In this document: in pieces, positions 9,125 through 32,915 of the stretch
Layout: the number at the start of each line of letters is the position of its first letter
How positions within the stretch are numbered: the stretch's first letter is position 1
NCBI GenBank assembly: GCA_016763135.1
Contig: JAESUI010000045.1
Location: 1 to 32,915 of the forward strand
Direction of reading: 5' to 3'
Length of the DNA stretch: 32,915 nt
Origin: Flavobacteriales bacterium
GTDB taxonomy: Bacteria; Bacteroidota; Bacteroidia; Flavobacteriales_E; Vicingaceae
Notes under the pieces: generated by a model
Seen by the model: only the letters and a program-made list of their open reading frames with translations
Database searches by the model: none
What the model was told of the DNA's origin: nothing
Position numbers and translations under genes: made by a program

Positions 9125-9721
9125 TTAAAATGTTTTTTTAATCCATAGTACAAGAAGGCCATTAAACATCATCTCCTTTATTTTATACGATGACGGTGGT
9201 GAAAAATCATGTGAACAATAAGTAACCAACCTAGTGCCCAAAGGCATTTTTAGCAGTTGACTATATACATAGTTTTCATATAAACGGTATTTGGTCTTTG
9301 AAAATGAAATATTCTGATCTATCCATTGACATGAGGCTATTTGCTCACAAAACGGATTAAAGTAATAGAATGCATCATATTTTCTAAAGTCACTATTTAA
9401 TATATTGGCATTGATAAATCTAACATTGTTTAATTCGAAATTCTTTAATAATTTATTTGCTTCAGAAACCAAATTCCCCCTCTTTTCTATGCCTGTGAAT
9501 TTTGAGTTTGACAAAATTCCACCAACTATACAAAACTTACCGGCTCCAGAACCTATGTCAAGAATGTTTGCCCCAGAATAGGCACCTAACCACTCTATAG
9601 CTACTTCTATTATTTCAATTGGAGTCCAGTGAATATTTGATAAACTTCTTATATATTCAGGGTATAATTTATCAAAATCCTGATTTGAAATATCGCTATA
9701 TAATTCTAACTGTTTCATCAA
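9125..9721 (-). CDS. class I SAM-dependent methyltransferase
   Basis: Motif [12 protein letters not shown], post-I GIE, and an acidic/aromatic motif II region ([10 protein letters not shown]). Confidence 0.8.
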
Positions 9722-9733
9722 TCTATTAATTCA

Positions 9734-10483
9734 CTATTTATTTTCGAATTTGTATCCAATTGTAATTTGTAAAGTGTGATTGTTTTCAAAATGAATCCCG
9801 TCTCCTTTTTTAACTACTTGATTCATATAACCTAATTGTATACTTCCATTAGGAATTATTTTATAACCTAACCCTCCATACAACCAATTTTGATTTAAGG
9901 AAGTTGGCATAACACTTTTATCATCTAAATTTATCCAAAGCTCATTAAAAGCCTTGCTAAACAGCTTTCCATTTTTAGAGATAGTCCTACTTAAAGTAAG
10001 TCTGTATCTAAATCGTTGAGCGTATTTATTGCCCTCAATTGTTGGTGCTAAACCGGAAGCATCATAAACGGTTTGTCCGATAAATCGTTGTTCAAAACGG
10101 TAACGATGACTTATTTTCAATTTTCCTGATTGATGTTTTAAGGTGATTTGCTCCCATATATTATTTTCAGGAGTAATAATGGCGATGGGTTGATTACCAT
10201 AAGGGCAAGATCTGATATAGGTATAACCTAGAGAAAGATCAATAGAAGAATTTAATTTGTAATTCAAGGCAGGCCTAAAAAGGAATTGTTGCCAATCTTC
10301 AAGACCATTTGCACGTCTTAAGTGGAGTTCAGATGAGAAATACCAATTCTCATTAACTGAGTATTTATTGGTGTTACTCCACCATGTATTAAGACTAGAA
10401 TCAACGATTCTTTTTTGAGACCATACCCGAATTGTCATTATTAACAATAAAAAAATAAGAATTGGGAATTTATTTAATTTCAT
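9734..10483 (-). CDS. predicted outer-membrane beta-barrel protein (DUF2490-like)
   Basis: Signal peptide, alternating amphipathic strands rich in Y/W/R, and a terminal strand LQITIGYKF. The family name is from memory only. Confidence 0.6.
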   Translation of the reverse strand: MKLNKFPILIFLLLIMTIRVWSQKRIVDSSLNTWWSNTNKYSVNENWYFSSELHLRRANGLEDWQQFLFRPALNYKLNSSIDLSLGYTYIRSCPYGNQPIAIITPENNIWEQITLKHQSGKLKISHRYRFEQRFIGQTVYDASGLAPTIEGNKYAQRFRYRLTLSRTISKNGKLFSKAFNELWINLDDKSVMPTSLNQNWLYGGLGYKIIPNGSIQLGYMNQVVKKGDGIHFENNHTLQITIGYKFENK

Positions 10484-10496
10484 TTTGTTGGAATTA

Positions 10497-10982
10497 TTAG
10501 TTGATTAAATTTACTTCCTGTACTTGGTAATTTTTAACTTCATATATAATGATTCCCTTTATATTTATTTCAAATTTACATCTATTATTTTGGAATAAAC
10601 TCATCCTAGAAATTTTAAGAATTTGATCTATAAGATCAATCCAAACTTTTTGTTTTTTAGGAGTTGTTGGAATCCTCTCTTTATCTGATTTCTTCCTAAG
10701 AATATTCAATTGTTTTTTTGCACTGGTCCAGTTTGACTTTTCCAATTGATGGAGCTGCATACTTTCATTGTTATCGCAGTTGTAATGACCGACTACTAAA
10801 ATTTCTGAGGCACCTTCTTCATAGACGCAATATTTAAAATAATCTAAATCAAGATTACTTGATGATTGGATAATGTTTCCAAAAAAGGTGCAAAGAATAA
10901 TGTTAGGGTTCTCAATAAAACTATTTACGAAATAGGAATCATTACAACTAATTACAATTGTTTTTTTTTTTGATATTTTCAT
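10497..10982 (-). CDS. degenerate beta-carbonic-anhydrase-like protein, 161 aa
   Basis: ISCNDSY aligns with CSDSR (Cys13, Asp15, Arg replaced by Tyr) and VVGHYNCD with CGHYGCG (His66, Cys69). FFGNI aligns with RNIAN, and IKGIIIYEVKN with HGWVYSLKD. It is about 50 aa shorter than Can. Confidence 0.65.
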   Translation of the reverse strand: MKISKKKTIVISCNDSYFVNSFIENPNIILCTFFGNIIQSSSNLDLDYFKYCVYEEGASEILVVGHYNCDNNESMQLHQLEKSNWTSAKKQLNILRKKSDKERIPTTPKKQKVWIDLIDQILKISRMSLFQNNRCKFEINIKGIIIYEVKNYQVQEVNLIN

Positions 10983-11012
10983 TTACATATTGTTCAAAGC
11001 ACACCTTCATTT

Positions 11013-12308
11013 TTACAGTATTGAATTAATTAGTAAAAAGGTGAGTATTCCAGAGATATAACCTATAAAAGCATAGAATGTAATATTCTTTAAATACCAG
11101 ATAAAATCTATTTTTAAAATTCCCATTATGGCAACTCCTGCCGCAGAACCAATAATTAAAATACTACCACCTGTACCTGCACAATAAGCTAAAAGTTCCC
11201 AGAATAAGTGATTTTCTGGATATACATTTAAGTCATACATTCCAATTGCTCCAGCAACTAAAGGCACATTATCTACTATAGAGGAGAAAACTCCAATTAA
11301 AGAATTAATAATCCAGATATTACCTATTTTATCATCTAAAATCAACGCTAAATCACTTAAATGACCTGCCACTTGCAAAGCTGAAACAGCTAAAAGAATT
11401 CCTAAAAAGAATAAAATACTTGGTGTATCTATTTTTTTTAATACTCCCACAATAGAGTATGTTGCTTTTAAACCTGAAGGTTTTCTTCGATGAATAATTT
11501 CTGTAACAATCCATAAAACACTTAGCCCTAATAATATCCCCATAAATGGAGGTAAATGGGTTGTTGTTTTAAATACAGGCACAAATAATAAAGAACCTAT
11601 TCCAAAATACATAACTGTTTTCTTCTCCCATTCTGGAATATTTTCATTTTTCTTTTCCTTTTCGATGCTTTTCAATTTCCCCTTCATCTTAAATGAAATT
11701 AAAACAAGAGGAACTAATAAACACATCAAACTAGGTAAGAATAACTTTAGAACAATATTTGCGGCTGTTACTTGTCCACCTATCCACAACATAATAGTGG
11801 TAACATCTCCAATAGGAGACCATGCTCCTCCTGCATTTGCAGCTAAAATTACCATGCCAGCAAATAACCATAGGTCTTTTGTTCTATGAATGAGTTTTCT
11901 CAAAAGAGCAGCCATTATTATGGATGTCGTTAAATTGTCAAGAGCAGCACTCATAAAAAACGTTACAAAACACAAAATCCAAAGTAATTTTGTCTTATTC
12001 AAAGTGGTTATTTTACTTGTTATAATATCAAAACCACCATGTACATCTACCAACTCTACAAGAGTCATTGCCCCTAATAGGAAAAACAGGATTCCAGAAA
12101 TTTCCCCCAAGTGATGCATTAGACTTTCTTCAACTAATAGAGTAGGGTCTTCTATAGCAGACAAAATAGTTTGACTACCTATAATTAATAATGTCCAAAC
12201 GATAACCGCTGTTAATAATGCAGAAGCTGCTTTATCTATTCTCAAGGGATGCTCTAAAGCAATAGCTGTGTATCCCAAGACAAAAATGAATATCATTAAA
12301 AAGTACAT
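11013..12308 (-). CDS. nhaD: NhaD-type Na+/H+ antiporter (ArsB/NhaD permease superfamily)
   Basis: 431 aa, polytopic. The N-terminus GYTAIALEHPLRIDKAASALL and overall architecture match NhaD as I recall it. Confidence 0.75.
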   Translation of the reverse strand: MYFLMIFIFVLGYTAIALEHPLRIDKAASALLTAVIVWTLLIIGSQTILSAIEDPTLLVEESLMHHLGEISGILFFLLGAMTLVELVDVHGGFDIITSKITTLNKTKLLWILCFVTFFMSAALDNLTTSIIMAALLRKLIHRTKDLWLFAGMVILAANAGGAWSPIGDVTTIMLWIGGQVTAANIVLKLFLPSLMCLLVPLVLISFKMKGKLKSIEKEKKNENIPEWEKKTVMYFGIGSLLFVPVFKTTTHLPPFMGILLGLSVLWIVTEIIHRRKPSGLKATYSIVGVLKKIDTPSILFFLGILLAVSALQVAGHLSDLALILDDKIGNIWIINSLIGVFSSIVDNVPLVAGAIGMYDLNVYPENHLFWELLAYCAGTGGSILIIGSAAGVAIMGILKIDFIWYLKNITFYAFIGYISGILTFLLINSIL

Positions 12309-12348: not shown

Positions 12349-14541
12349 CTAAACAGTAACTAAAGCCTTATTTAAACATTTTATCAATCCTTTTCCTTTG
12401 TTTAAAAGCTCATGAATTTCTTTTGTTTCTAAAACTTTATGAGATTGATGTAACATTAAATCTGTACCATTACTCACCATATAATAATCTAAATTAGATT
12501 CAAAGAAGTTAAGGATTTCAGGGGTAAAGAATTTTCTTACTTCGTTTTCATTCAATCCTTTTAGCACGTAATTATTAGAGAATTTTTTGTGGGTATCGAA
12601 ATCAATATCTCTTGCACCAACTACTTCTGCTATTTTATCTACGAAAGTTTCCTTTTCCATATAAAATTTAGGAATTGGAGATAATCCTGAAATTTTTAAA
12701 ACAGTTGTTGATTCTAAATCAGTTGTAGTTTCAGCACCTTCTTGTGTTTTAATGTCTGCAATACTAAATAGTGCGTTATTATTTCTTGTGCTGATGATAT
12801 TCTTTATTGAAATTATTTTTTTACGAATAGTCAATGTATAAAAATCCCAACCTTCATTATCTGCTATTTTATTTTGAAATTCAAATTCATTGGATTGAGC
12901 AAAAGACAAAAGCTCTAGTGTACGAGAATCAATGTTGATATTTTTCAATTTAGCTTTAGAGTTCTTATCTCTTGCTGCTAATGGATGATTAGATACTGGA
13001 TGTAGATTTTCGACATTCTCTATATGTACATTTTTATTATTTTGTTTTGCCAACCTAGCGTAATCTTCTAAATGCTCCATAACTGTATGGTCAACAAAAT
13101 TAACCGCTGAGAAATCTAAAATTAACTCATCATAATTTTGAACGCCACTATCCATTTTCTTTTTTAGTGATAAGTAATTAGAAAATATTTGAGAACCTTT
13201 TAAGTAAATAATTTTACTACTTCCTTTGTGTTCTACGCTCAAATTAGATTTAAATAGTTCATTAATTTTTGTGCCTTTGAATAGAATTAATACGTACTTG
13301 AATAGAATTCCGATAACAATACCTATAATTAAATCTGTTGCTAAAACAGCGACAAGTGTTACCACAAAAATTTCAAACTCCATTAATCCAATTTTATACA
13401 TGTGCTTAAATTCTTTTGGAGAAGCTAATCTAAATCCAGTAAAAACAAGCATGGCAGCTAAAGCAGGAACAGGAATCATTTCAATTATAAAAACCCCTAT
13501 CAACACATAAATTAATAAGAATAATCCATGAGAAAAATTAGCCCACTGTGTTTTAGCTCCGTTATTTACATTGGCTGATGAACGTACAATTTCTGAAATC
13601 ATTGGTAATCCTCCCAATGCCGCAGCCAAGGAAGATCCCGCTCCCATTGCTATTAAATCTTTATCTAAATTGGAACTCCTTTTATAAGGGTCTAGGCTAT
13701 CCACAGCTTTTGCACTCAATAAACTTTCAATGGCAGAAACCAATGCAACTCCTATAACTGCAATCCAAAAAGGAGACGTTCCTATTTTTTCAAAAGAGGG
13801 TAGTTTTAAACCTCCTCCGCCTAATAAGCCTCCATCTAAATTTACCATTTTTAGGTTTTCATGACCTAAGTACATTGCTAATGGAATGGTAAAGATTAGT
13901 ACCCACATTGGAGCAGGAACCATTTTGATGATTTTACTTTTAATAATAGGGTGTATTATCAGTGTAGCTAAAGCAACAAGTGTTACTATAATAGCACTCA
14001 AATTCGTTTCGTGCATTAAATAATGTGGAATTTCTGATGCAACTTCTAAAATTTCACCTTTTGGTCCTTTTGCTCCTATGGCCGGAAAAACTTGTTTAAT
14101 TATAATAATAACACCAATAGCTGCAAGCATTCCGTGAACTGCTGCGGAAGGAAAATAATCTCCAACCTTCCCTACTTTTAGTAGTCCAAAAACAGCCATA
14201 ATTAATCCTCCAATTACAATTGCTCCTAAAGCATGAGGATACCCTGCAAAGCCACTTTCTATTCCTGCACCTCCCATACTTTCTGCTGCACCTAAAGTAA
14301 TTACAATTAACCCTGCGGCAGGGCCACTAATGGTTACAAATGTTCCGCCAATTCTTGATGCCAATACTCCACCAACAATAGCTGTAATTATACCTGCTAA
14401 TGGCGGTACTCCAGATGCTAAGGCAATACCTAAACAAAGTGGTAATGCAATAAGTGATACACTAAACCCTGAAATGATGTCGTCTTTAAAATGGGCTTTA
14501 AGTCCTGCAAACCCTGTTTTTGGTATGTTGTTATTTTTCAT
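12349..14541 (-). CDS. SulP-family anion (possibly bicarbonate) transporter with STAS domain and an extra ~200-aa C-terminal domain
   Basis: SulP N-terminal signature ([30 protein letters not shown]) and a second-repeat motif (GGLPMISEIVRSSANVNNGAKTQ). STAS-like region (IIYLKGSQIFSNY...LILDFSAVNFVDHTVMEHLEDY). Residues ~525-730 are unassigned. Confidence 0.9.
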   Translation of the reverse strand: MKNNNIPKTGFAGLKAHFKDDIISGFSVSLIALPLCLGIALASGVPPLAGIITAIVGGVLASRIGGTFVTISGPAAGLIVITLGAAESMGGAGIESGFAGYPHALGAIVIGGLIMAVFGLLKVGKVGDYFPSAAVHGMLAAIGVIIIIKQVFPAIGAKGPKGEILEVASEIPHYLMHETNLSAIIVTLVALATLIIHPIIKSKIIKMVPAPMWVLIFTIPLAMYLGHENLKMVNLDGGLLGGGGLKLPSFEKIGTSPFWIAVIGVALVSAIESLLSAKAVDSLDPYKRSSNLDKDLIAMGAGSSLAAALGGLPMISEIVRSSANVNNGAKTQWANFSHGLFLLIYVLIGVFIIEMIPVPALAAMLVFTGFRLASPKEFKHMYKIGLMEFEIFVVTLVAVLATDLIIGIVIGILFKYVLILFKGTKINELFKSNLSVEHKGSSKIIYLKGSQIFSNYLSLKKKMDSGVQNYDELILDFSAVNFVDHTVMEHLEDYARLAKQNNKNVHIENVENLHPVSNHPLAARDKNSKAKLKNINIDSRTLELLSFAQSNEFEFQNKIADNEGWDFYTLTIRKKIISIKNIISTRNNNALFSIADIKTQEGAETTTDLESTTVLKISGLSPIPKFYMEKETFVDKIAEVVGARDIDFDTHKKFSNNYVLKGLNENEVRKFFTPEILNFFESNLDYYMVSNGTDLMLHQSHKVLETKEIHELLNKGKGLIKCLNKALVTV

Positions 14542-14587: not shown

Positions 14588-16456
14588 TTATGATGAACGA
14601 TATGCAAAGTCATGATAACCGCTTATATGCTGCCCTAAGAACAATCTTGAATAAATTCTAAAAACGACTAAGCCGTCTAATGCTAGACAAAGTGTTAATA
14701 AGACTAATAGTGGAAATTGATTTTCATGTATATGACCAAGCAATAAATCTTCTCCAATAAAAGTTGGAGTTATTGGAAATCCAGATATACCTAAACATGC
14801 TAATATGAAAATGAATGCTAACCCAGAGAATTCATAATTGTGACCTTGAAATTGATTAAGGCTGATGTCTTTTCCTTTTTTCTTGAGTTTATAAATTACG
14901 AATAGACCAACACCCCCAGAAACAAGAATACCGCTCAAATAAAGATGTACTTGAGTAAAATCAAACACCTCATTAAAACCAAAAGATAAAGAAAGAAATA
15001 GTTGACTTACAATGATTAACAACCATGCTGTAAGTACCGATTTACGTTTAACAAATGCTTTTAGAATCAAAATAAAACCTAAAAAAGCAAAAAATTCTGG
15101 TAGATAGTTGATTATATTATTGGGAACTATTTCTCTGTGATAAATAGCATATAAGCCAATTAAAAATATAGGCACATAAATGCTAAATGTAATTTTTGGA
15201 GACAATAAATTAATTCTATTTCCTACTTTTTTAAGAGGATTCCATAAAAAATTATACATAAATGTATCGAGGTTAAACTCTTTAATACTTAAAATGTATA
15301 AAGACAATTTTAGTTTATCCCAAAAGGAATCTTTCCCTTGTTGTGCTGGTTGATTAAAATGAAAAAATTGATCGTGAATTTTATAACTTAGAATAGATGG
15401 AGAAATAAGTAATTGATGAGAACGAAGCATTGCATTTCCCATAAAGTGAATCATTGCGAGCCAGTACCAACCAAAAGCAACTTCAATAAACATTAATCCA
15501 ATTTGGGCTAATGAGGAATAGGCAATTTGTGTTTTTATGGTAGATTGTACTTTAGCTGTAGATGATGCTAATAATACAGTTATCAATCCTATTCCTCCTA
15601 TAATAAAATGAAACCAATAGTTACCTTCCCAAAATGGAGATGTACGTATTAAAAGAAAAACACCAATGTGTGCGGACAATGAACCATAAAAAATGGAACT
15701 AGAAGTTGTCGGTCCTTCCATTGCTCTAGGTAACCATGAAGAAAATGGGAACTGAGCAGATTTAACCATTGCTGCCAATAAAAATAATCCAGGTATTAGG
15801 TAGATATAAATTGTTTCATTGATAATGTGATAGTGGGGGCTATGTAATCCATCTAAATCTTTGAAATTAATACTGTAACCAAAATAATGATGACTTAACC
15901 AAATGCCTAACAGCAAAGCAACATCTGCAATTCTATAAACCGAAATTACTTTTAAAGCATTTTTAACTGGGAGATACCTGTCTCGATAAAAACCGATTAG
16001 GAAAAAAGACGTAACACCAAGCACTTCCCAACCGACAAAGAGCGTTTCTAAGTTGCCTGACATCAACACAACTACTAGCCCAAAATAGAAGAATTTAATG
16101 TTGTTAAAAAATCGTTTAAATCCTTTTTCTCTATGGATATAATTTTTACTAAAAACCACAATAATTCCTGTTAAAAATGTTGCCGTCAATAAATAGATTA
16201 AGCTATATCCATCTAACAAAAAACTAATGGTAAAATCTGCTTTTCCTGTATGAAACAATACAGGCCCTTGCATAAAAATGGGTTCAAAACCATCCATTGC
16301 CCAAATGATTGCCATTATAATTAGTGCAATATAATTGACAAATACACTTGTAATTGAAATGCCAAATATGGCTTTTTCGTTCTCATTCGAGAATAAAAAA
16401 CTAATTATTAAAGCCAAAAATGGAGTAGTTAATAATGTATAAAATAAGATGTTCAT
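14588..16456 (-). CDS. dabB: DabB: NuoL/MnhA-like proton-conducting membrane subunit of a DAB/MpsAB inorganic-carbon pump
   Basis: PF00361-type motifs: WEVLGVTSFFLIGF and KSAQFPFSSWLPRAMEGPTTSSSIFYGSLSAHIGVFLLIR. It starts 16 nt downstream of the DUF2309 gene. Confidence 0.85.
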   Translation of the reverse strand: MNILFYTLLTTPFLALIISFLFSNENEKAIFGISITSVFVNYIALIIMAIIWAMDGFEPIFMQGPVLFHTGKADFTISFLLDGYSLIYLLTATFLTGIIVVFSKNYIHREKGFKRFFNNIKFFYFGLVVVLMSGNLETLFVGWEVLGVTSFFLIGFYRDRYLPVKNALKVISVYRIADVALLLGIWLSHHYFGYSINFKDLDGLHSPHYHIINETIYIYLIPGLFLLAAMVKSAQFPFSSWLPRAMEGPTTSSSIFYGSLSAHIGVFLLIRTSPFWEGNYWFHFIIGGIGLITVLLASSTAKVQSTIKTQIAYSSLAQIGLMFIEVAFGWYWLAMIHFMGNAMLRSHQLLISPSILSYKIHDQFFHFNQPAQQGKDSFWDKLKLSLYILSIKEFNLDTFMYNFLWNPLKKVGNRINLLSPKITFSIYVPIFLIGLYAIYHREIVPNNIINYLPEFFAFLGFILILKAFVKRKSVLTAWLLIIVSQLFLSLSFGFNEVFDFTQVHLYLSGILVSGGVGLFVIYKLKKKGKDISLNQFQGHNYEFSGLAFIFILACLGISGFPITPTFIGEDLLLGHIHENQFPLLVLLTLCLALDGLVVFRIYSRLFLGQHISGYHDFAYRSS

Positions 16457-16472: not shown

Positions 16473-19001
16473 CTATGGATAAACATAAGTTGGTATATTT
16501 TCTAAAGTTGCATCAAGGATATGATTGGTTTTCATTTCACTTCCCTCTGCAATTACTTTATTGATGTCACCTGTTTTTAATGCCTCTTTTAGTGGTGTAT
16601 AAAGTTGAAATTTTCCATTATAAAAAAGGTAAAGATTATCGTCATCAGGAGATATAGCTACCAAGTGTATCCATCCTTTATCAAACCAATCATACATCTC
16701 TTGTGAAGATTTAATTATTTTTAAAATAATTTCAGGTTTCTGTTCTATCATCATTAATAATCTAACAGGATCATGATTTTCAATCATTTGCAACGGAAGT
16801 CCTGTACGAATATCACCATCACTACTGTTGGTTACTCCTATTAACCCTGTAACATTATGAGGGAGTTTTGTTCCTGCCCCCATTTTTTCAATGTCCATTC
16901 GTGAGAAATAATATTCTAAATTAATACCTCCACAAACATTTGGTAATGGTCCTAAAACCTGTTCTAATACTTTCCCGTCAGGATCTTTTTTGCAATCGTA
17001 GGATTGTAAAAAAGCTCTTCTATCTAAAAACAAACCTTTGGTACTCTCTCTCCTTCCAATATGACATAAAGCATTGGTTCCATGTCCTAATTCAGGTCTA
17101 GGTTCAAAATAAGAAACAGAGCGTTTTTTTATCTCATTTCTAATGTGTTTGATGTCTTTTTTAATGTTGATAGAAGCAAACCTTCTTGCTCTTTCTTTAG
17201 CGTTTAAATCGAGTGCCGTTTCAAATGTTTCTTGGTGTATTGAATGTGCTTTCTTATTCTCATTTGTTAATATTTCTTCATCATAAAAAGCCACTTCATC
17301 ACTAGCCGTATCATGCATTGCTGCAACAAATTGTGTTGTTTCTGGAATATTCAGTCCTTTTGTTTCTAAAGCAATTCTAACTGCTGGGTGATTTGCCATA
17401 AAAGCGAATACTCTAGCATTTACAGCTCCAGGTCTTCCGCTACAAGCTCCACAATCATGTGCTCCATGATGCGGATTGTTTGCACTACTACTACCATGAG
17501 CCACCACATATACTATTGAAGCAAAGTTTTCTGTTAAACCAATGCCTGTTAGCATAGATTCAACAATATCAATCATTTCAGAAATTTGATAACCTATCTG
17601 TAATCCATTCTCAATGTCTTTAGAGTCTTTATTTTCAATTAACAGTTTACCATTAATATCCATGTGAGAAAATGCATTGGAAATATCTGCTTGCATTTTT
17701 GGTCGAGCTAAATCTAACGTCATTTTTAAACCTGCCAACAACCCAATTGTAAACGTTGAAAGAATTCCTTGAAAAAAAGAATGTGTTTTTTTATTATGGA
17801 AAATTTCGTGCTTCCTAGTTTGTTTCATCTCAATTTCTTTGATAAGATGCTTTGGAGTTAGTGCAACAGGTGCATTTTTATCATAAAATTTACCACCAAA
17901 AGGTTGAAAATAAATAGCTGCACCATAATATCCTGGAGCACCTAATGTTTCACATTGTTTGTCCACATCCTCCAAATGTCTTCTGTAAGAACATTCTCTA
18001 TCATCCACACAAAACATAGCCTGAAAACTTACATCTGTACTTTTTGGTTTCTTTTTATTCTTAACAAGAAAGTCAACACCTGCAAGAACATCATCGTAGT
18101 AATCCCACTCAAAAGCTTCTTGCCATAATTGTAATATTTCTTCTAATTCAGTATGTTTAACCTTTGATAAATAATCAATCGGTTTTTTTGTAAAATCTTG
18201 AGCTAGAGGCTGCCATTTCTTACCCAACACATTATCAAGGGCATCAATTTCCAATAGCAGCTCAAGGAGTATTAAATCTTTAAATTGCACTTTCTTTTTA
18301 TAAAAAATGGTGTCAGGATTGTCTTCAATAACGCTAAACATCCCACTCCATCCTTTGTGTGAATATTGTTGGTCAAATAAATAATTAGAGTAATAATCGG
18401 GATTTCCAACCACTATTTTTAATAAACTTTCAATGGATAGATTTTCTGAGAACAGTAATTCTTTGGCTTTTTTTGTTTTGAAAAAACTACTAAAGCTGTT
18501 TTTTTCTAATAGCTTAATAGAATTGATAAGTCCTTCTTTTTCAAAAGGAAAATGCCAAATGGCTATTCCTTGGTCTAAAAAACTAGCTATAATTCTAAAC
18601 AACAAAGGTTGAACTAAATTATCGAGGTCTATTTTATATTGAATTTTCCATTGTTTTCTTAATTGACCAACTCTCGGATTATATTTATGCTCATAAGATG
18701 TATTGAGCATTTTATCCATATATGCTTTAACGTTTTTTTTTCCTTTACTTCTTTCAATAACCTGTTCAATAATTTCTTTTTTTATTCTGCTTTGTTGATG
18801 CAGTTTTCGATAATTATTGATATTAAAAGTTACATGAAATCCAAAAATTTCAGAAGCACTAAAAATGCCATCAAAAAATTCTTTATCTTGAAAAGAATGA
18901 AGAGAATTATGGTGTACAAAATCTTTTAAAGTAGCTTGTACTGGTAAGAAGTGTCTTAATTTTTTAAGACATTTATCTTCATTGAAAACGTGATTATTCA
19001 T
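16473..19001 (-). CDS. dabA: DabA: DUF2309-family inorganic-carbon transporter subunit
   Basis: 842 aa cytoplasmic protein paired with a NuoL-like gene. It has the beta-CA-like site MFCVDDRE (Cys331, Asp333, Arg335) and VVAHGSSSANNPHHGAHDCGACSGRPG (His502, Cys517). Confidence 0.85.
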   Translation of the reverse strand: MNNHVFNEDKCLKKLRHFLPVQATLKDFVHHNSLHSFQDKEFFDGIFSASEIFGFHVTFNINNYRKLHQQSRIKKEIIEQVIERSKGKKNVKAYMDKMLNTSYEHKYNPRVGQLRKQWKIQYKIDLDNLVQPLLFRIIASFLDQGIAIWHFPFEKEGLINSIKLLEKNSFSSFFKTKKAKELLFSENLSIESLLKIVVGNPDYYSNYLFDQQYSHKGWSGMFSVIEDNPDTIFYKKKVQFKDLILLELLLEIDALDNVLGKKWQPLAQDFTKKPIDYLSKVKHTELEEILQLWQEAFEWDYYDDVLAGVDFLVKNKKKPKSTDVSFQAMFCVDDRECSYRRHLEDVDKQCETLGAPGYYGAAIYFQPFGGKFYDKNAPVALTPKHLIKEIEMKQTRKHEIFHNKKTHSFFQGILSTFTIGLLAGLKMTLDLARPKMQADISNAFSHMDINGKLLIENKDSKDIENGLQIGYQISEMIDIVESMLTGIGLTENFASIVYVVAHGSSSANNPHHGAHDCGACSGRPGAVNARVFAFMANHPAVRIALETKGLNIPETTQFVAAMHDTASDEVAFYDEEILTNENKKAHSIHQETFETALDLNAKERARRFASINIKKDIKHIRNEIKKRSVSYFEPRPELGHGTNALCHIGRRESTKGLFLDRRAFLQSYDCKKDPDGKVLEQVLGPLPNVCGGINLEYYFSRMDIEKMGAGTKLPHNVTGLIGVTNSSDGDIRTGLPLQMIENHDPVRLLMMIEQKPEIILKIIKSSQEMYDWFDKGWIHLVAISPDDDNLYLFYNGKFQLYTPLKEALKTGDINKVIAEGSEMKTNHILDATLENIPTYVYP

Positions 19002-19075: not shown

Positions 19076-19420
19076 TCAAAGAGGTAAATTCAATCGACAA
19101 TAGAGTAAATAGTAAGGAATTTTTAATGTTGAAAGAAGATCATAACCTAGAAATGATCTGACTAATGTGACATCAAGATTATAAAGGTAACTATTTCGAG
19201 CACCAAGGATACTTTGAATAGGGTTACCACTCCCTGCACCATTGTTTTCGTCTGAAAAGGTTAAAAGGTCATTGCAGTAAGTATTTTCATTTTCTTCTAT
19301 TTCCTCTATGAATTCTAACGCATGACCATTTAGGTTAAGTTCAAGGGGGATTCGTTCTGGTGCTACTGCAACCAGAAGCATGAGAACATAAATTAAACAT
19401 ATTTTAGATAGACTTACCAT
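19076..19420 (-). CDS. hypothetical secreted/membrane-anchored protein
   Basis: 114 aa with an N-terminal hydrophobic signal-like segment (ICLIYVLMLLVAVA). I recognise no motif. It lies upstream of dabA on the same strand. Confidence 0.4.
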   Translation of the reverse strand: MVSLSKICLIYVLMLLVAVAPERIPLELNLNGHALEFIEEIEENENTYCNDLLTFSDENNGAGSGNPIQSILGARNSYLYNLDVTLVRSFLGYDLLSTLKIPYYLLYCRLNLPL

Positions 19421-19505: not shown

Positions 19506-20198
19506 ATGAATATTTCTGAAAAATTTGACTTTAAAAGTGACCTTTTATATGAATCTCTCAATGATAGCGATATGAAATTGATTGAATCGACTTACGAAAG
19601 ATTAAGCTTTTCAAAAGGAGATAAGATTTTTTATGAGGATGGAATCCCAACTGGGATGTTCCAAATAGTTTCTGGACGAGTAAAAAAATTCAAGACAGTT
19701 TTAGATAAGCAACAGCAGATATTTTATGTCTATGGTAAAAATGATTTTTTCGGATATCACGCTCTTTTATCGAATGAGAGATATCAAGATTCCTGTGAAG
19801 CGATTGAAGATGTTGTAGTGAATTTTATTAGTGCTAAAAATTTTAAAATGTTATTAGACAAGCTCCCTATGTTGAAAGATGCGCTATTGGTAAATATTTC
19901 TCACGAGTTCGGTGTTTTAGCTAATGTTATTGGGATTCTAGCACAGAAGTCATTAATTGTAAGGTTGGGATTATTTTTATTGATATTGCATAAACGATTT
20001 AGGCTAAAGGAGAATTTAAAAAAAGGGATGAATTTTTCGCGCGAAGATTTGGCTAATATTATTGGTACTAGTCGAGAGAGTTTGTCACGGAGTTTAAATG
20101 AGTTAAAAACACTTGACCTTATTTTTGTTAAAGGTCGGTTTATTCAGATCAAAAGTGAAGATCGATTAGAAGAGTTTGTACTGAGTCACACAACATAG
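19506..20198 (+). CDS. Crp/Fnr-family transcriptional regulator
   Basis: cNMP-binding-like beta-roll (FSKGDKIFYEDGIPTGMFQIVSGRVK) and C-terminal HTH (FSREDLANIIGTSRESLSRSLNELK). It is divergent from the dab array. Confidence 0.88.
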   Translation: MNISEKFDFKSDLLYESLNDSDMKLIESTYERLSFSKGDKIFYEDGIPTGMFQIVSGRVKKFKTVLDKQQQIFYVYGKNDFFGYHALLSNERYQDSCEAIEDVVVNFISAKNFKMLLDKLPMLKDALLVNISHEFGVLANVIGILAQKSLIVRLGLFLLILHKRFRLKENLKKGMNFSREDLANIIGTSRESLSRSLNELKTLDLIFVKGRFIQIKSEDRLEEFVLSHTT

Positions 20199-31495: not shown

Positions 31496-32915
31496 ATGGA
31501 AGGTTCAACAACAAGCAACAACAAAGGATTATTTTCAAGTTTAAAACAAGATTTACCAGCAAGCGTGGTCGTGTTTTTTGTAGCACTGCCCTTATGTTTA
31601 GGAATAGCACTAGCATCTGGAGCGCCCTTGTTTTCAGGATTAATCGCAGGAATAATTGGAGGTGTCATAGTAGGGGCGTTAAGTGGCTCAACTCTGGGAG
31701 TTAGTGGTCCTGCTGCTGGTTTAGCAGTAATTGTATTAACTGCTATTCAAGACTTGGGAGCTTTCGATATTTTCTTAGTTGCTGTTGTGTTGGCTGGGAT
31801 TATACAGTTAATAATGGGGTTTGCTAAGGGTGGAATTATCGCTTATTTCTTTCCATCGTCTGTTATCTTCGGAATGCTTTCAGGTATAGGAATTATCATC
31901 TTTATTAAACAAATACCACATGCCCTTGGGTATGACAAAGACCCCGAAGGAGATTTTGAGTTTATGCAAGTTGATGGACAAAATACATTTTCTGAATTGT
32001 TTAATATGATAGAATATATAAGTCCTGGAGCTTTAATTATTGCTGTCGTATCTCTTGGTATTTTGCTCTTGTGGGAAACTAAAATGATAAAAAAGTTTTA
32101 AATTTTCCAGTTAATACAAGGACCTTTAGTGGCAGTAGCAACAGGAATTGCACTTAATTTTGTTTTTGCAAATAAAGCAGGATACATGCTTAATAGCGAA
32201 CAAATAGTAAACGTTCCTATCCCTGGTAATATGAATGAGTTTATTGCCAATTTTACCTTCCCTGATTTTACGGCACTTACTAATCCTGCAGTTTATGTAA
32301 CGGCAATAGTAATTGCAATTGTAGCGAGTTTAGAAACCTTACTGTGTGTAGAGGCAACAGATAAACAAGATCCACACAAAAGAATTACACCAACCAATAG
32401 AGAGTTAAAAGCTCAGGGTGTTGGTAATATTTTATCAGGGTTAATAGGAGGTTTACCTATTACGCAAGTAATTGTTCGAAGTTCTGCTAATATGCAAGCT
32501 GGAGGAAAAACAAAAATATCAGCTATTGTTCATGGAGGGCTGTTGCTAGTAAGTGTAATGTTTATTCCTAACATTTTAAATATGATTCCATTAGCAACTC
32601 TTGCTGCTATTTTATTTGTGGTGGGGTATAAATTAGCCAAACCCTCTGTTTTTAAAAAAATGTACTCCCAAGGAATGGGACAATTTATTCCTTTCGTTAT
32701 TACCATTTTAGGGATTGTTTTTATTGATCTTTTGTGGGGATTAGGAATTGGGTTAGTAGTTGCTGTTTTTATTATTCTTAAAAACAATTACGCCATTCCT
32801 TATAAATTGAAAGAGGAAGAGCTAGAAGGGAAAAAGAAAATCACTATTGAATTGGCTCAGGAAGTTACTTTTTTAAATAAAGCAAGCATCTTAAAATCAT
32901 TAGATCGAATTCCTG
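31496..32915 (+). pseudogene. second SulP-family anion transporter, interrupted by one in-frame TAA (3' end beyond window)
   Basis: [30 protein letters not shown] ...TKMIKKF*IFQLIQGPLVAVATGIALN...GGLPITQVIVRSSANMQAGGKTK... The same frame is open on both sides of TAA 32099-32101 through to 32915. Confidence 0.85.

Follow-up and report, generated by a model that had tools for sequence, protein, structure and literature searches.

Gene content of the window

We analyzed a window of 32,915 nucleotides (positions 1 to 32,915 of contig JAESUI010000045.1, assembly GCA_016763135.1, from a Flavobacteriales bacterium), in which an ORF on the minus strand, with an in-frame stop immediately 5′ of its ATG, encodes a β-carbonic anhydrase (β-CA)-like protein, referred to below as the target. 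The features used in this analysis are as follows.

6814..7452, plus strand: canonical type II-like β-CA (Can) with CSDSR and GHYGCGG motifs (Pfam Pro_CA, 183.5 bits; NCBIfam NF007756)
7449..7934, plus strand: second CA-like paralogue, 161 aa (Pfam Pro_CA, 23.4 bits, under the cutoff)
9125..9721, minus strand: SAM-methyltransferase-like protein, final gene of the same-strand array (Pfam Methyltransf_31, PCMT)
9734..10483, minus strand: DUF2490 protein whose N-terminal sequence is signal-like (Pfam DUF2490, 163.6 bits)
10497..10982, minus strand: the target, an Arg-less compact β-CA-like protein, 161 aa (ORF, Pfam PF00484, AF2, Foldseek)
10776..10790, minus strand: G65-H66-Y-N-C69 of the target, second and third zinc ligands (translation)
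10932..10946, minus strand: C13-N-D15-S-Y17 of the target, first zinc Cys, catalytic/ligand Asp and the Tyr replacing the dyad Arg (translation)
11013..12308, minus strand: NhaD-type Na+/H+ antiporter, between sulP and the CA-like gene (Pfam CitMHS; NCBIfam NhaD_1)
12349..14541, minus strand: 730-aa SulP-family transporter of anions (putatively bicarbonate), with STAS and an unassigned conserved C-terminal extension (Pfam Sulfate_transp, STAS)
14588..16456, minus strand: DabB, proton-conducting membrane subunit (Pfam Proton_antipo_M, Proton_antipo_N; syntenic in related loci)
16473..19001, minus strand: DabA, vectorial CA subunit, its own dyad C331-x-D333-x-R335 kept (Pfam DabA, 676 bits; motif search)

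Can scored 261.5 bits against NCBIfam NF007756 (cutoff 251), a model that left the target unmatched, and the NCBIfam search returned no model for the target, the second paralogue, or two members of its wider family. The antiporter scored 158 bits against NhaD_1 (cutoff 80), and SulP remained under the cutoff of the DauA, sulP, and BicA models. The C-terminal 220 aa of SulP were considered as a degenerate β-CA domain that might dimerize with the target, and this candidate was rejected at an hhalign probability of 0.5%, with no Pfam or PDB sequence match. A small ORF upstream of dabA (19076-19420) was not similar to the ORF that takes its place at a related locus (L001). Rfam gave no match in the whole window at gathering thresholds, and a promoter/terminator scan, which does not cover Bacteroidota promoters, yielded counts at or under shuffle expectation.

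The target belongs to the β-carbonic anhydrase superfamily

The target matched Pfam PF00484 (Pro_CA) with 30.3 bits (E = 5.8 × 10−7, cutoff 25.7), and the match spanned profile positions 2 to 148 of 156, amounting to 147 of the 156 domain positions. The AF2 model had a pLDDT of 83.4 and a pTM of 0.80, and the best 50 matches of this predicted structure in a Foldseek search of the PDB were exclusively β-CAs (probability 1.00, TM 0.55 to 0.66). A profile of the target family aligned with solved β-CAs over the full length, with E values from 3 × 10−25 to 1 × 10−18, and CafD, the Porphyridium enzyme, Nce103, and HICA/ECCA-type enzymes were the nearest solved relatives of the family by Foldseek and profile search. 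These results showed that the target, as modeled, has the β-CA α/β fold, and by profile match and predicted fold it is a member of the β-CA superfamily (PF00484), its similarity far exceeding chance. A preliminary description of this DNA had proposed just such a profile or structure search as a check on its by-eye assignment, and Pfam, AF2, Foldseek, and the family profile all found the fold.

The same description had called the protein half-size, a label at odds with the profile coverage and with a length similar to that of the 171-aa CafD (PDB 6jqe). Its estimate of about 50 missing residues was accurate: the target is 51 residues shorter than Can, and the N-terminal arm and C-terminal tail of β-CAs are absent while the core is whole. 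The N-terminus is 9 residues shorter than in homologues, no signal peptide is apparent, and β-strand 1 begins at residue 8 of the AF2 model.

The zinc ligands are kept and the dyad Arg is lost

Translation located the zinc triad of the 161-aa protein at C13, H66, and C69, so that all three ligands are kept as reported before, and the first two are 53 residues apart compared with 56 in Can (C43 and H99), again in agreement with the earlier reading. The Asp-Arg dyad (C-x-D-x-R) is incomplete, with Asp15 kept and Tyr17 at the Arg position. Alignments with Can by BLASTP (target, E = 3 × 10−4) and hhalign (family, probability 89%, E = 2 × 10−6) placed D70-N71 where Gly-Gly follows the last Cys, which bears out the described loss of the CGG turn. 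The substrate-orienting Gln (Q-x-P), Q34 in Can, corresponds to S4 in the target and to Ile in longer homologues when positions are counted from the first zinc Cys through an unaligned stretch.

Among the motif pairings with Can that had been drawn by eye, those at C13/D15/Y17 and H66/C69 stood, but those of FFGNI and IKGIIIY appear to be shifted. In the profile alignment, T32-F-F-G-N36 falls on R65-N-I-A-N69, one position off the proposed match of FFGNI to RNIAN. For IKGIIIY and HGWVY, placing G143 on the Gly puts I146, not Y147, opposite the Tyr in our reading of a stretch that hhalign ended before and in which MAFFT left the two Gly residues unaligned. The noncatalytic bicarbonate pocket of type II β-CAs is formed by Trp39, Arg64, and Tyr181. 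In the target, V10 stands at the Trp and T32 at the Arg by profile alignment, and I146 is probably at the Tyr in our register, which lies beyond reliable alignment coverage. The CO2-pocket positions I29, F34, and Y51 retain hydrophobic character.

An exhaustive HMM search was needed to reveal the family, of which a word-indexed protein search recovered few members (6 and 12 matches): it is rare, confined to Bacteroidota, and comprises about 45 clusters among 1.84 billion representative proteins, and its members are at present annotated either as "carbonic anhydrase" or as "hypothetical protein." A genome scan with peptide patterns specific to the close clade of the target found two species, both uncultured Flavobacteriales MAGs. 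Residue counts were taken from 46 aligned sequences. The first zinc Cys (Cys13) is present in 46/46 and position 15 is acidic in 46/46 (Asp in 33, Glu in 13); His66 is found in 43, Cys69 in 45, and Gly65 in 40 of the 46. Position 17, that of the dyad Arg, is hypervariable (Tyr in 14, Asn in 7, His in 5, Phe in 5, and others including Cys, Asp, Val, Leu, Ile, and Gly), with Arg in 1/46, so that the missing catalytic Arg noted before is a trait of the whole family and not peculiar to the target; within the close clade (n = 6), C13-N-D15-S-Y17 is invariant. Besides the dyad Arg, the family has lost the Gly-Gly turn and, by position count, the Gln that orients the substrate. As judged from these 46 sequences, the metal site appears to be under selection, and catalysis does not. 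Most wider-family members carry an additional Cys (C-x-[DE]-C) and a conserved hydrophobic-Asn C-terminal end, a possible docking motif.

The CA-like gene is linked to sulP

As a further check, the preliminary description had asked whether the gene is conserved next to transporters of dissolved inorganic carbon (DIC) in related genomes, and it lies beside DIC-transport genes in all related loci examined. These are 13 distinct loci, 6 from the close clade, counting the window, and 7 from the wider family; a metagenome scan with a narrower alignment contributed a single new one (L020). The CA-like gene adjoins the SulP gene in 13/13. It follows sulP directly on the 3′ side in 10 loci, often by 4 nt, and is separated from it by one gene in the other three, this being nhaD in the window and L010 and the DUF2490 gene in L002. 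The linkage persists from 56% down to about 18% identity, and of the 12 loci whose flanks allow a judgment, 11 have dabAB. At L020, sulP and the CA-like gene form a pair with no dabAB within 10 kb 5′ or about 2.3 kb 3′. An nhaD gene occurs in 2/6 close-clade loci and takes the same position solely in the window and L010/L018.

These data showed that the CA-like gene is tightly and deeply linked to the SulP gene inside dabA-dabB-sulP operons, and they define a conserved Bacteroidota operon of dabA-dabB-sulP, the Arg-less CA-like gene, and then a gene for an outer-membrane-like protein. Synteny favors SulP over NhaD or DabAB, making SulP the most likely functional partner. The DUF2490 gene is co-conserved 3′ or 5′ of the CA-like gene and is present in seven loci (L001, L002, L008, L010, L014, L016, and L026), and the SAM-methyltransferase-like gene is co-conserved in six (L001, L005, L008, L010, L016, and L026). 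BLASTP detected no relation between the DUF2490 protein and the product of the 443-aa outer-membrane-like gene of Cytophagales loci. The SulP genes of L002 and L005 are without STAS, which the window SulP has. The same operon occurs without the Arg-less gene in L014 and L016, and the gene is therefore dispensable for the operon.

A His-less paralogue follows can

The ORF at 7449-7934 on the plus strand, overlooked in the preliminary description, overlaps the can stop by 4 nt and encodes the second CA-like paralogue. Its motifs are C9-P-D11-C12-Y13 and N63-D64-x-x-C67, in which the ligand His is replaced by Asp. The hhalign comparison of alignment A1 (target side) with alignment A3 (paralogue) gave a probability of 88% and an E value of 3 × 10−6 over the full length. 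This His-less paralogue is also directly 3′ of can, without exception, in L014, L016, and L022.

Comparison with known systems

To the preliminary description no characterized family of this kind was known, but an Arg-less compact β-CA has been characterized, the minor β-CA CafD of Aspergillus fumigatus (PMC7528686), which forms a cab-type dimer. Like the target, CafD is a compact core of about 170 aa that keeps the Cys-His-Cys triad and the Asp and has the dyad Arg naturally replaced (C-S-D-S-G compared with C-N-D-S-Y in a full-length alignment). It is the best Foldseek match of the target and its second-best sequence match among solved structures (E = 1 × 10−18, full length). CafD is described as predominantly inactive, being unable to form the Asp-Arg on/off switch, and its activity is 2.4 WAU/mg compared with 20 for CafA (PMC7528686). 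It differs from the target in being fungal, with no co-encoded transporter and about 15% identity, and in keeping the Arg of the R-x-L-G-N motif where the target has T32; moreover, it is a single enzyme with measurable activity and not a family defined by Arg loss. A literature search found no relevant description of an Arg-less bacterial β-CA family, of PF10070 in Bacteroidetes, or of β-CA pseudoenzymes.

Type II β-CAs (E. coli Can, H. influenzae HICA) share the fold of the predicted target structure at TM 0.60 to 0.66, and in their T-state the Asp is the fourth zinc ligand, the state proposed below for the target. Unlike the target, they keep the Arg and can switch open; they also have an N-terminal arm and exceed the target in length by about 50 residues.

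SulP-β-CA fusions and can2-sulP pairs (Rv3273 type) resemble the target in coupling a β-CA-fold gene to a SulP gene. Their CAs keep C-x-D-x-R and are treated as ordinary carbonic anhydrases, whereas the target is a CA-like protein without the Arg. The pairing has been taken to indicate that bicarbonate is transported and that the two proteins are functionally coupled (Felce & Saier 2004, as cited in PMC6458275), and in the can2-sulP clade the CA is said to replace STAS (PMC6458275). The window SulP, in contrast, keeps STAS and adds a C-terminal domain, and its operon also has dabAB. SbtB-type systems offer an analogy only: there a small cytoplasmic protein, encoded directly 3′ of a bicarbonate transporter gene, has a role like the one we propose for the target, while its fold and ligand chemistry are unrelated.

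A proposed role beside SulP

We propose, at a probability of roughly 0.5, that the target is a compact Arg-less CA-fold protein with an Asp-closed zinc site and little CA activity that serves as an accessory or regulatory protein of SulP. The target probably still binds zinc. True pseudo-CAs usually lose ligands, as the His-less paralogue has in part, and this counts against the proposed role. By analogy with CafD (PMC7528686), in the absence of an Arg to draw Asp15 off, the carboxylate would fill the fourth zinc position, making CO2 hydration slow or absent. The residual CA activity of CafD cautions that "Arg-less" does not equal "dead," and near-strict ligands with a carboxylate are also expected of a working, if unusual, catalytic site. 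We envisage that the target works in the cytoplasm as a partner of the SulP-type, probably bicarbonate, transporter, where it may couple transport activity to the local CO2/HCO3−/pH state or serve as a scaffold for the transporter. Rapid interconversion would fall to the nearby canonical Can and to DabA; since both Can and a dyad-bearing DabA are already encoded in the window, a third fast CA would be unnecessary.

The main rival is a slow but real CA, active, for example, at high pH, where hydroxide could displace Asp15. In this alternative the target is a genuine, slow or conditional CA in a transport metabolon with SulP, turning imported bicarbonate into CO2 or working in the opposite direction. 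We regard it as possible though on the unlikely side. The near-invariant zinc triad and carboxylate, the hydrophobic pocket positions, and a Pfam score exceeding the gathering cutoff all agree with it, and we reason that in heterotrophic Bacteroidota without a carboxysome a cytosolic CA cannot short-circuit a CCM. Against these points stand the absence of the dyad Arg and the hypervariability of its position, where catalytic selection should fix one residue, the additional loss of the Gln and the Gly-Gly turn, and the canonical Can encoded 3 kb off. We know of no Asp/Glu interchange at position 15 in active β-CAs, and Smith et al. in 2002 reportedly found activity lowered at least 250-fold in Arg-36 variants of Cab. 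In DabA2, whose dyad is essential, Ala at the zinc ligands and the Asp-Arg dyad impairs growth under limiting CO2 (PMC13144422), which likewise speaks against catalysis by the target, but CafD, the closest characterized relative, does have low activity (PMC7528686). In one SulP clade, sulP is always next to can2 and sometimes fused to it, and since SulP genes paired or fused with active β-CAs are known (PMC6458275), catalysis within a metabolon offers itself as a natural alternative.

In a second alternative, the target is a noncatalytic pseudosubunit that forms a heteromer with another β-CA-fold protein, Can or DabA through its CA domain, and modulates that enzyme rather than SulP. β-CAs are obligate dimers whose active sites lie where the two chains meet, and the presence of dabA in the same operon in 11/12 loci would suit such a pairing. 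In CafA, Q110′, F138′, and F160′ are supplied by the partner chain (PMC7528686). The His-less sister clade always lies directly 3′ of can, which suggests pairing with a CA as an ancestral theme. Both the close clade and the wider family, however, adjoin SulP and not can or dabA, the L020 pair occurs without dabAB in the flanks given above, and the target lacks the N-terminal arm with which each chain of a canonical dimer holds the other. We consider this reading improbable.

Still less probable is that the target is a β-CA-family hydrolase for another small molecule, such as COS or CS2, with SulP carrying the matching anion. Bicarbonate is only a putative substrate of the window SulP, which stays under the cutoff of the NCBIfam BicA, DauA, and sulP models; this leaves room for the idea and also counts against the preferred reading. 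The neighboring dabAB, can, and nhaD genes nevertheless point to inorganic carbon, and the clade D COS/CS2 hydrolases keep the Asp-Arg dyad that is absent in the target. β-CA members with very low CA and high COS/CS2 hydrolase activity do exist, but these are clade D enzymes, whereas CafD, the best structural match of the target, belongs to clade A (PMC12035519).

Finally, the reading of the gene as a CA relic that is decaying and has no function, which the lost catalytic residues and the N-terminus of the window copy, 9 residues short, might suggest, is effectively refuted by conservation, with intact ORFs in 13 loci at 18 to 56% identity, near-invariant ligands, and a conserved gene position.

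Implications

Marine Flavobacteriales and Cytophagales carry out substantial anaplerotic bicarbonate fixation, and to our knowledge their inorganic carbon acquisition and its regulation are poorly known. The family described here is a CA-fold component that has retained its metal site over long evolution and discarded the residue for fast catalysis. Beyond the preferred reading of an accessory or regulatory partner of SulP, we advance a speculative and rather doubtful extension: the zinc-retaining pseudo-CA would be the CO2/HCO3− (or pH/redox) sensing subunit of Bacteroidota SulP bicarbonate transporters, a counterpart of SbtB in function but with the fold of a CA, with the His-less paralogue possibly doing likewise for Can, so that the two together would form two branches of CA-derived regulators.

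If the target proves merely to be a slow CA, automated annotation would still be corrected. Should the regulator or sensor role be true, a SulP/SLC26-type transporter would for the first time have a regulatory partner with a CA fold, and the target would offer a natural case on which to test the Asp-Arg switch model of β-CAs. An unrecognized accessory protein could matter where DAB/SulP systems are transferred into crops or production strains, and a two-branch regulator system, if true, would control inorganic-carbon uptake in abundant marine heterotrophs.

Homology and fold of the beta-CA-like protein

The Pfam profile Pro_CA matched the 161-aa beta-carbonic anhydrase (beta-CA)-like protein with 30.3 bits (E=5.8e-7; cutoff, 25.7), BLASTP aligned it with Can, the canonical beta-CA of the window, at E=3e-4, and a profile of its close homologues matched Can with 89% probability. 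These comparisons indicated a resemblance to beta-CAs beyond chance. The preliminary description had called the protein half-size, which proved wrong, as the Pfam match covers profile positions 2-148 of 156; what it lacks relative to the longer Can type, 51 residues in all, is an N-terminal arm and a C-terminal tail. Since an in-frame stop lies directly 5' of the ATG, a longer protein is impossible. The N terminus is 9 residues shorter than in homologues (stop at the ATG; window 10980-11015), and no signal peptide was apparent.

With AlphaFold2, a 6-sequence alignment gave a pLDDT of 71, and a 46-sequence family alignment gave 83.4 (pTM, 0.80); in the latter, the segments that carry the ligands reached 87-91. 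The best 50 Foldseek matches in the PDB were all beta-CAs (probability, 1.00; TM, 0.55-0.66), the first-ranked being CafD, a minor beta-CA of Aspergillus fumigatus (6jqe, 171 aa). Searched against PDB sequences, the family profile matched a Porphyridium beta-CA (E=3e-25) and, over the full length, CafD (E=1e-18). Thus, the beta-CA fold, chosen beforehand as a point on which the proposal could fail, was upheld by both profile and structure searches.

Metal ligands and the missing arginine

Both sequence motifs were located by translation, and the key residues of the preliminary description were found to be right:

10497-10982, minus strand: beta-CA-like protein, 161 aa
10932-10946, minus strand: its C13-N-D15-S-Y17
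10776-10790, minus strand: its G-H66-Y-N-C69

Likewise, the Cys-to-His ligand spacing is 53 residues, versus 56 in Can (6814-7452; C43, D45, R47, H99, and C102), Tyr17 aligns with the dyad Arg of Can, and D70-N71 stand where Can has Gly-Gly behind its last Cys. Further polar features typical of canonical enzymes are lost too. The position of the Gln in Q-x-P, found by counting from the first zinc Cys rather than by alignment, is S4 here and Ile in longer homologues. Residues at hydrophobic-pocket positions are still hydrophobic or aromatic (I29, F34, and Y51). Two positions of the type II allosteric triad are V10 and T32 in the profile alignment; the third is probably I146, in a register of our own, hhalign having ended before this stretch and MAFFT having left the conserved Gly unaligned.

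The word-indexed search returned five relatives with 46-56% identity, and C13, D15, Y17, H66, and C69 are invariant among these and the window protein (together, the close clade). One genome was scanned for each GTDB species, with peptide patterns fitting the close clade only; the two carriers are MAGs of uncultured Flavobacteriales. Among 1.84 billion representative proteins, searched exhaustively with an HMM, 101 matched at E<=1e-3, and about 45 of these are 155-190 aa long and carry C-N-D-C-x or C-x-E-C followed by H-x-x-C; canonical C-S-D-S-R enzymes enter this list only from E ~5e-9 downward.

Column statistics of 46 aligned family sequences
Position 13: Cys, 46/46
Position 15: Asp, 33; Glu, 13 (acidic, 46/46)
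Position 16: Cys, 35/46 (Ser in the clade of the window protein)
Position 17 (dyad Arg): Y14, N7, H5, F5, others; Arg once
Position 66: His, 43/46
Position 69: Cys, 45/46

These data indicated that the family conserves its metal site more strongly than any other feature, with the catalytic residue free to vary. Named members belong to Flavobacteriales, Cyclobacteriaceae, Fulvivirgaceae, Peijinzhouia, and Bacteroidia and are currently annotated as "carbonic anhydrase" or "hypothetical protein"; no NCBIfam model matched the window protein or the two wider-family members compared, and our literature searches found no paper on such an Arg-less family.

The last residue is Asn in 29 of 45 family members, usually after L, M, I, or F, compared with a background frequency of 8.5% and a single case among 30 canonical beta-CAs from the same match list. 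The window protein ends in ..LIN (10500-10505), and its five closest homologues end otherwise than in Asn. This terminal hydrophobic-Asn may be a C-terminal docking motif.

Linkage to SulP and Dab genes

In the window, dabA, dabB, sulP, nhaD, the CA-like gene, DUF2490, and a methyltransferase gene lie on one strand in a tight array, 12-46 nt apart:

16473-19001, minus strand: dabA, encoding DabA with its own C331-x-D333-x-R335

Gene order was compared across 13 distinct loci, each with a family member: six of the close clade (window, L001, L002, L005, L008, and L010) and seven of the wider family at ~18-30% identity (L012, L013, L020, L021, L024, L025, and L026). All close-clade loci of sufficient length have dabA-dabB-sulP and then the CA-like gene; DUF2490 and the methyltransferase are variably present, and nhaD intervenes between sulP and the CA-like gene only in the window and L010/L018. 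The CA-like gene directly follows SulP in each wider-family locus, in several cases at a distance of 4 nt; L012, L013, L024, L025, and L026 also carry dabAB, with L026 showing the full gene order of the window plus a convergent can, and L020 has a complex-I/Mbh-like module upstream in place of dabAB. Thus, SulP is the most constant neighbour, and conservation beside DIC-transport genes in related genomes, the other check set in advance, held across the 13 loci.

At L020 (368-11831), a family member with 30% identity follows a 734-aa SulP, and the module comprises NuoL-, NuoH-, NuoK-, NuoM/N-, NuoCD-, and NuoB-like genes, the NuoB-like one with a ferredoxin-like domain; it brings NDH-1-type CO2 uptake modules to mind.

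Directly after the CA-like gene, four loci encode a homologous 441-449-aa protein (48-69% identity among copies) with a signal-like N terminus, an outer-membrane-barrel-like C terminus, and no Pfam match:

L012, 5891-7222
L020, 10482-11831
L021, 1239-2561
L013, ~4182-5535

A 427-aa ORF without a Pfam match holds this position in L024 (10608-11891) and L025, as does DUF2490 in the window (9734-10483). The 441-449-aa protein and DUF2490 might serve the system as anion porins.

The window SulP (730 aa) ends in a ~210-aa extension after STAS (12349-~12990, minus strand), for which neither Pfam nor PDB sequences gave a match and no resemblance to a CA was seen; the extension is kept in the clade (32% identity to an L021 fragment), and SulPs of 699-734 aa occur in L001, L008, L012, L013, L014, L016, L020, and L026. 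From its context we infer that this SulP carries bicarbonate; it scored below cutoff with the NCBIfam BicA, DauA, and sulP models. SulP is believed to serve marine flavobacteria in bicarbonate import for anaplerotic carboxylation (PMC3595038). A 201-aa ORF at 31496-32101 (plus strand), matching only the first 180 of 380 Sulfate_transp profile positions, is a second SulP gene that has been truncated or frameshifted, or else a split ORF.

Divergent from the dab operon lies a Crp/FNR-family gene (cNMP-binding plus HTH; 19506-20198, plus strand), a candidate regulator that was not seen at the equivalent position in the other loci examined. A small ORF precedes dabA (19076-19420, minus strand; 114 aa, hydrophobic N terminus); ORFs of 106-140 aa occupy this position elsewhere, the one in L001 having no sequence similarity to it.

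A His-less paralogue coupled to can

A second CA-like gene directly follows can:

7449-7934, plus strand: CA-like paralogue, 161 aa, overlapping the can stop by 4 nt

Its Pfam score (23.4 bits) falls just under the cutoff, and 8 of its 12 matches, the window paralogue itself included, lack a precomputed Pfam domain. C9-P-D11-C12 and N63-D64-x-x-C67 are invariant in the 11-member clade, the latter indicating that Asp has taken the place of the His ligand. Hhalign revealed full-length homology to the clade of the first protein (probability, 88%; E=3e-6). The paralogue directly follows can in every relative locus compared (L014, L016, and L022), and the pair adjoins the dab-sulP operon in three of four loci, counting the window; the L014 and L016 operons carry no gene of the first type. 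An IS110-family transposase gene lies ~4 kb from can (1973-2968, minus strand), and in L022 a phage-type integrase is directly upstream of the pair, a hint of possible mobility of these modules.

Putative function

In beta-CAs, the Asp-Arg pair prevents Asp from binding the zinc and positions the water bound to that metal; Smith et al. in 2002 reportedly saw Arg-36 variants of Cab lose at least 250-fold activity. Taking together the beta-CA fold, the kept ligands and carboxylate, and the loss of Arg, Gln, and Gly-Gly, we propose that Asp15 would close the zinc site of the window protein, so that CA activity would be low or absent. Since the window already encodes Can and a DabA that retains its dyad, and since SulP is the constant neighbour of the gene, the protein would most likely serve the SulP-type transporter in the cytoplasm as an accessory or regulator, a reading that we put at about even odds (0.5). 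Growth at limiting CO2 is impaired when the zinc ligands and dyad of DabA2 are changed to Ala (PMC13144422).

The main rival, a slow or pH-gated real CA in a SulP-CA metabolon as suggested for can2-sulP gene pairs and their fused forms (PMC6458275), is possible but doubtful: the strict ligand conservation and kept hydrophobic pocket favour it, whereas the hypervariability of position 17 and the swapping of Asp and Glu at position 15 argue against it. A pseudo-subunit of Can or DabA is unlikely, a hydrolase for another substrate more so, and a decaying gene highly improbable. The observation itself, apart from "half-size", is real, and an accessory or sensor function is a reading of these sequences.

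Homology places the protein in the beta-CA superfamily, but as it lacks the Asp-Arg dyad, the defining catalytic feature, canonical carbonic anhydrase is not the right label for it. It would work most like CafD, which is Arg-less (C-S-D-S-G), compact, and reported to be closed and predominantly inactive (PMC7528686), and it is arranged like known SulP-CA pairs. In contrast to both, it belongs to a distinct bacterial family defined by Arg loss, is embedded in dabAB-sulP operons, and has a His-less sister paralogue coupled to can.
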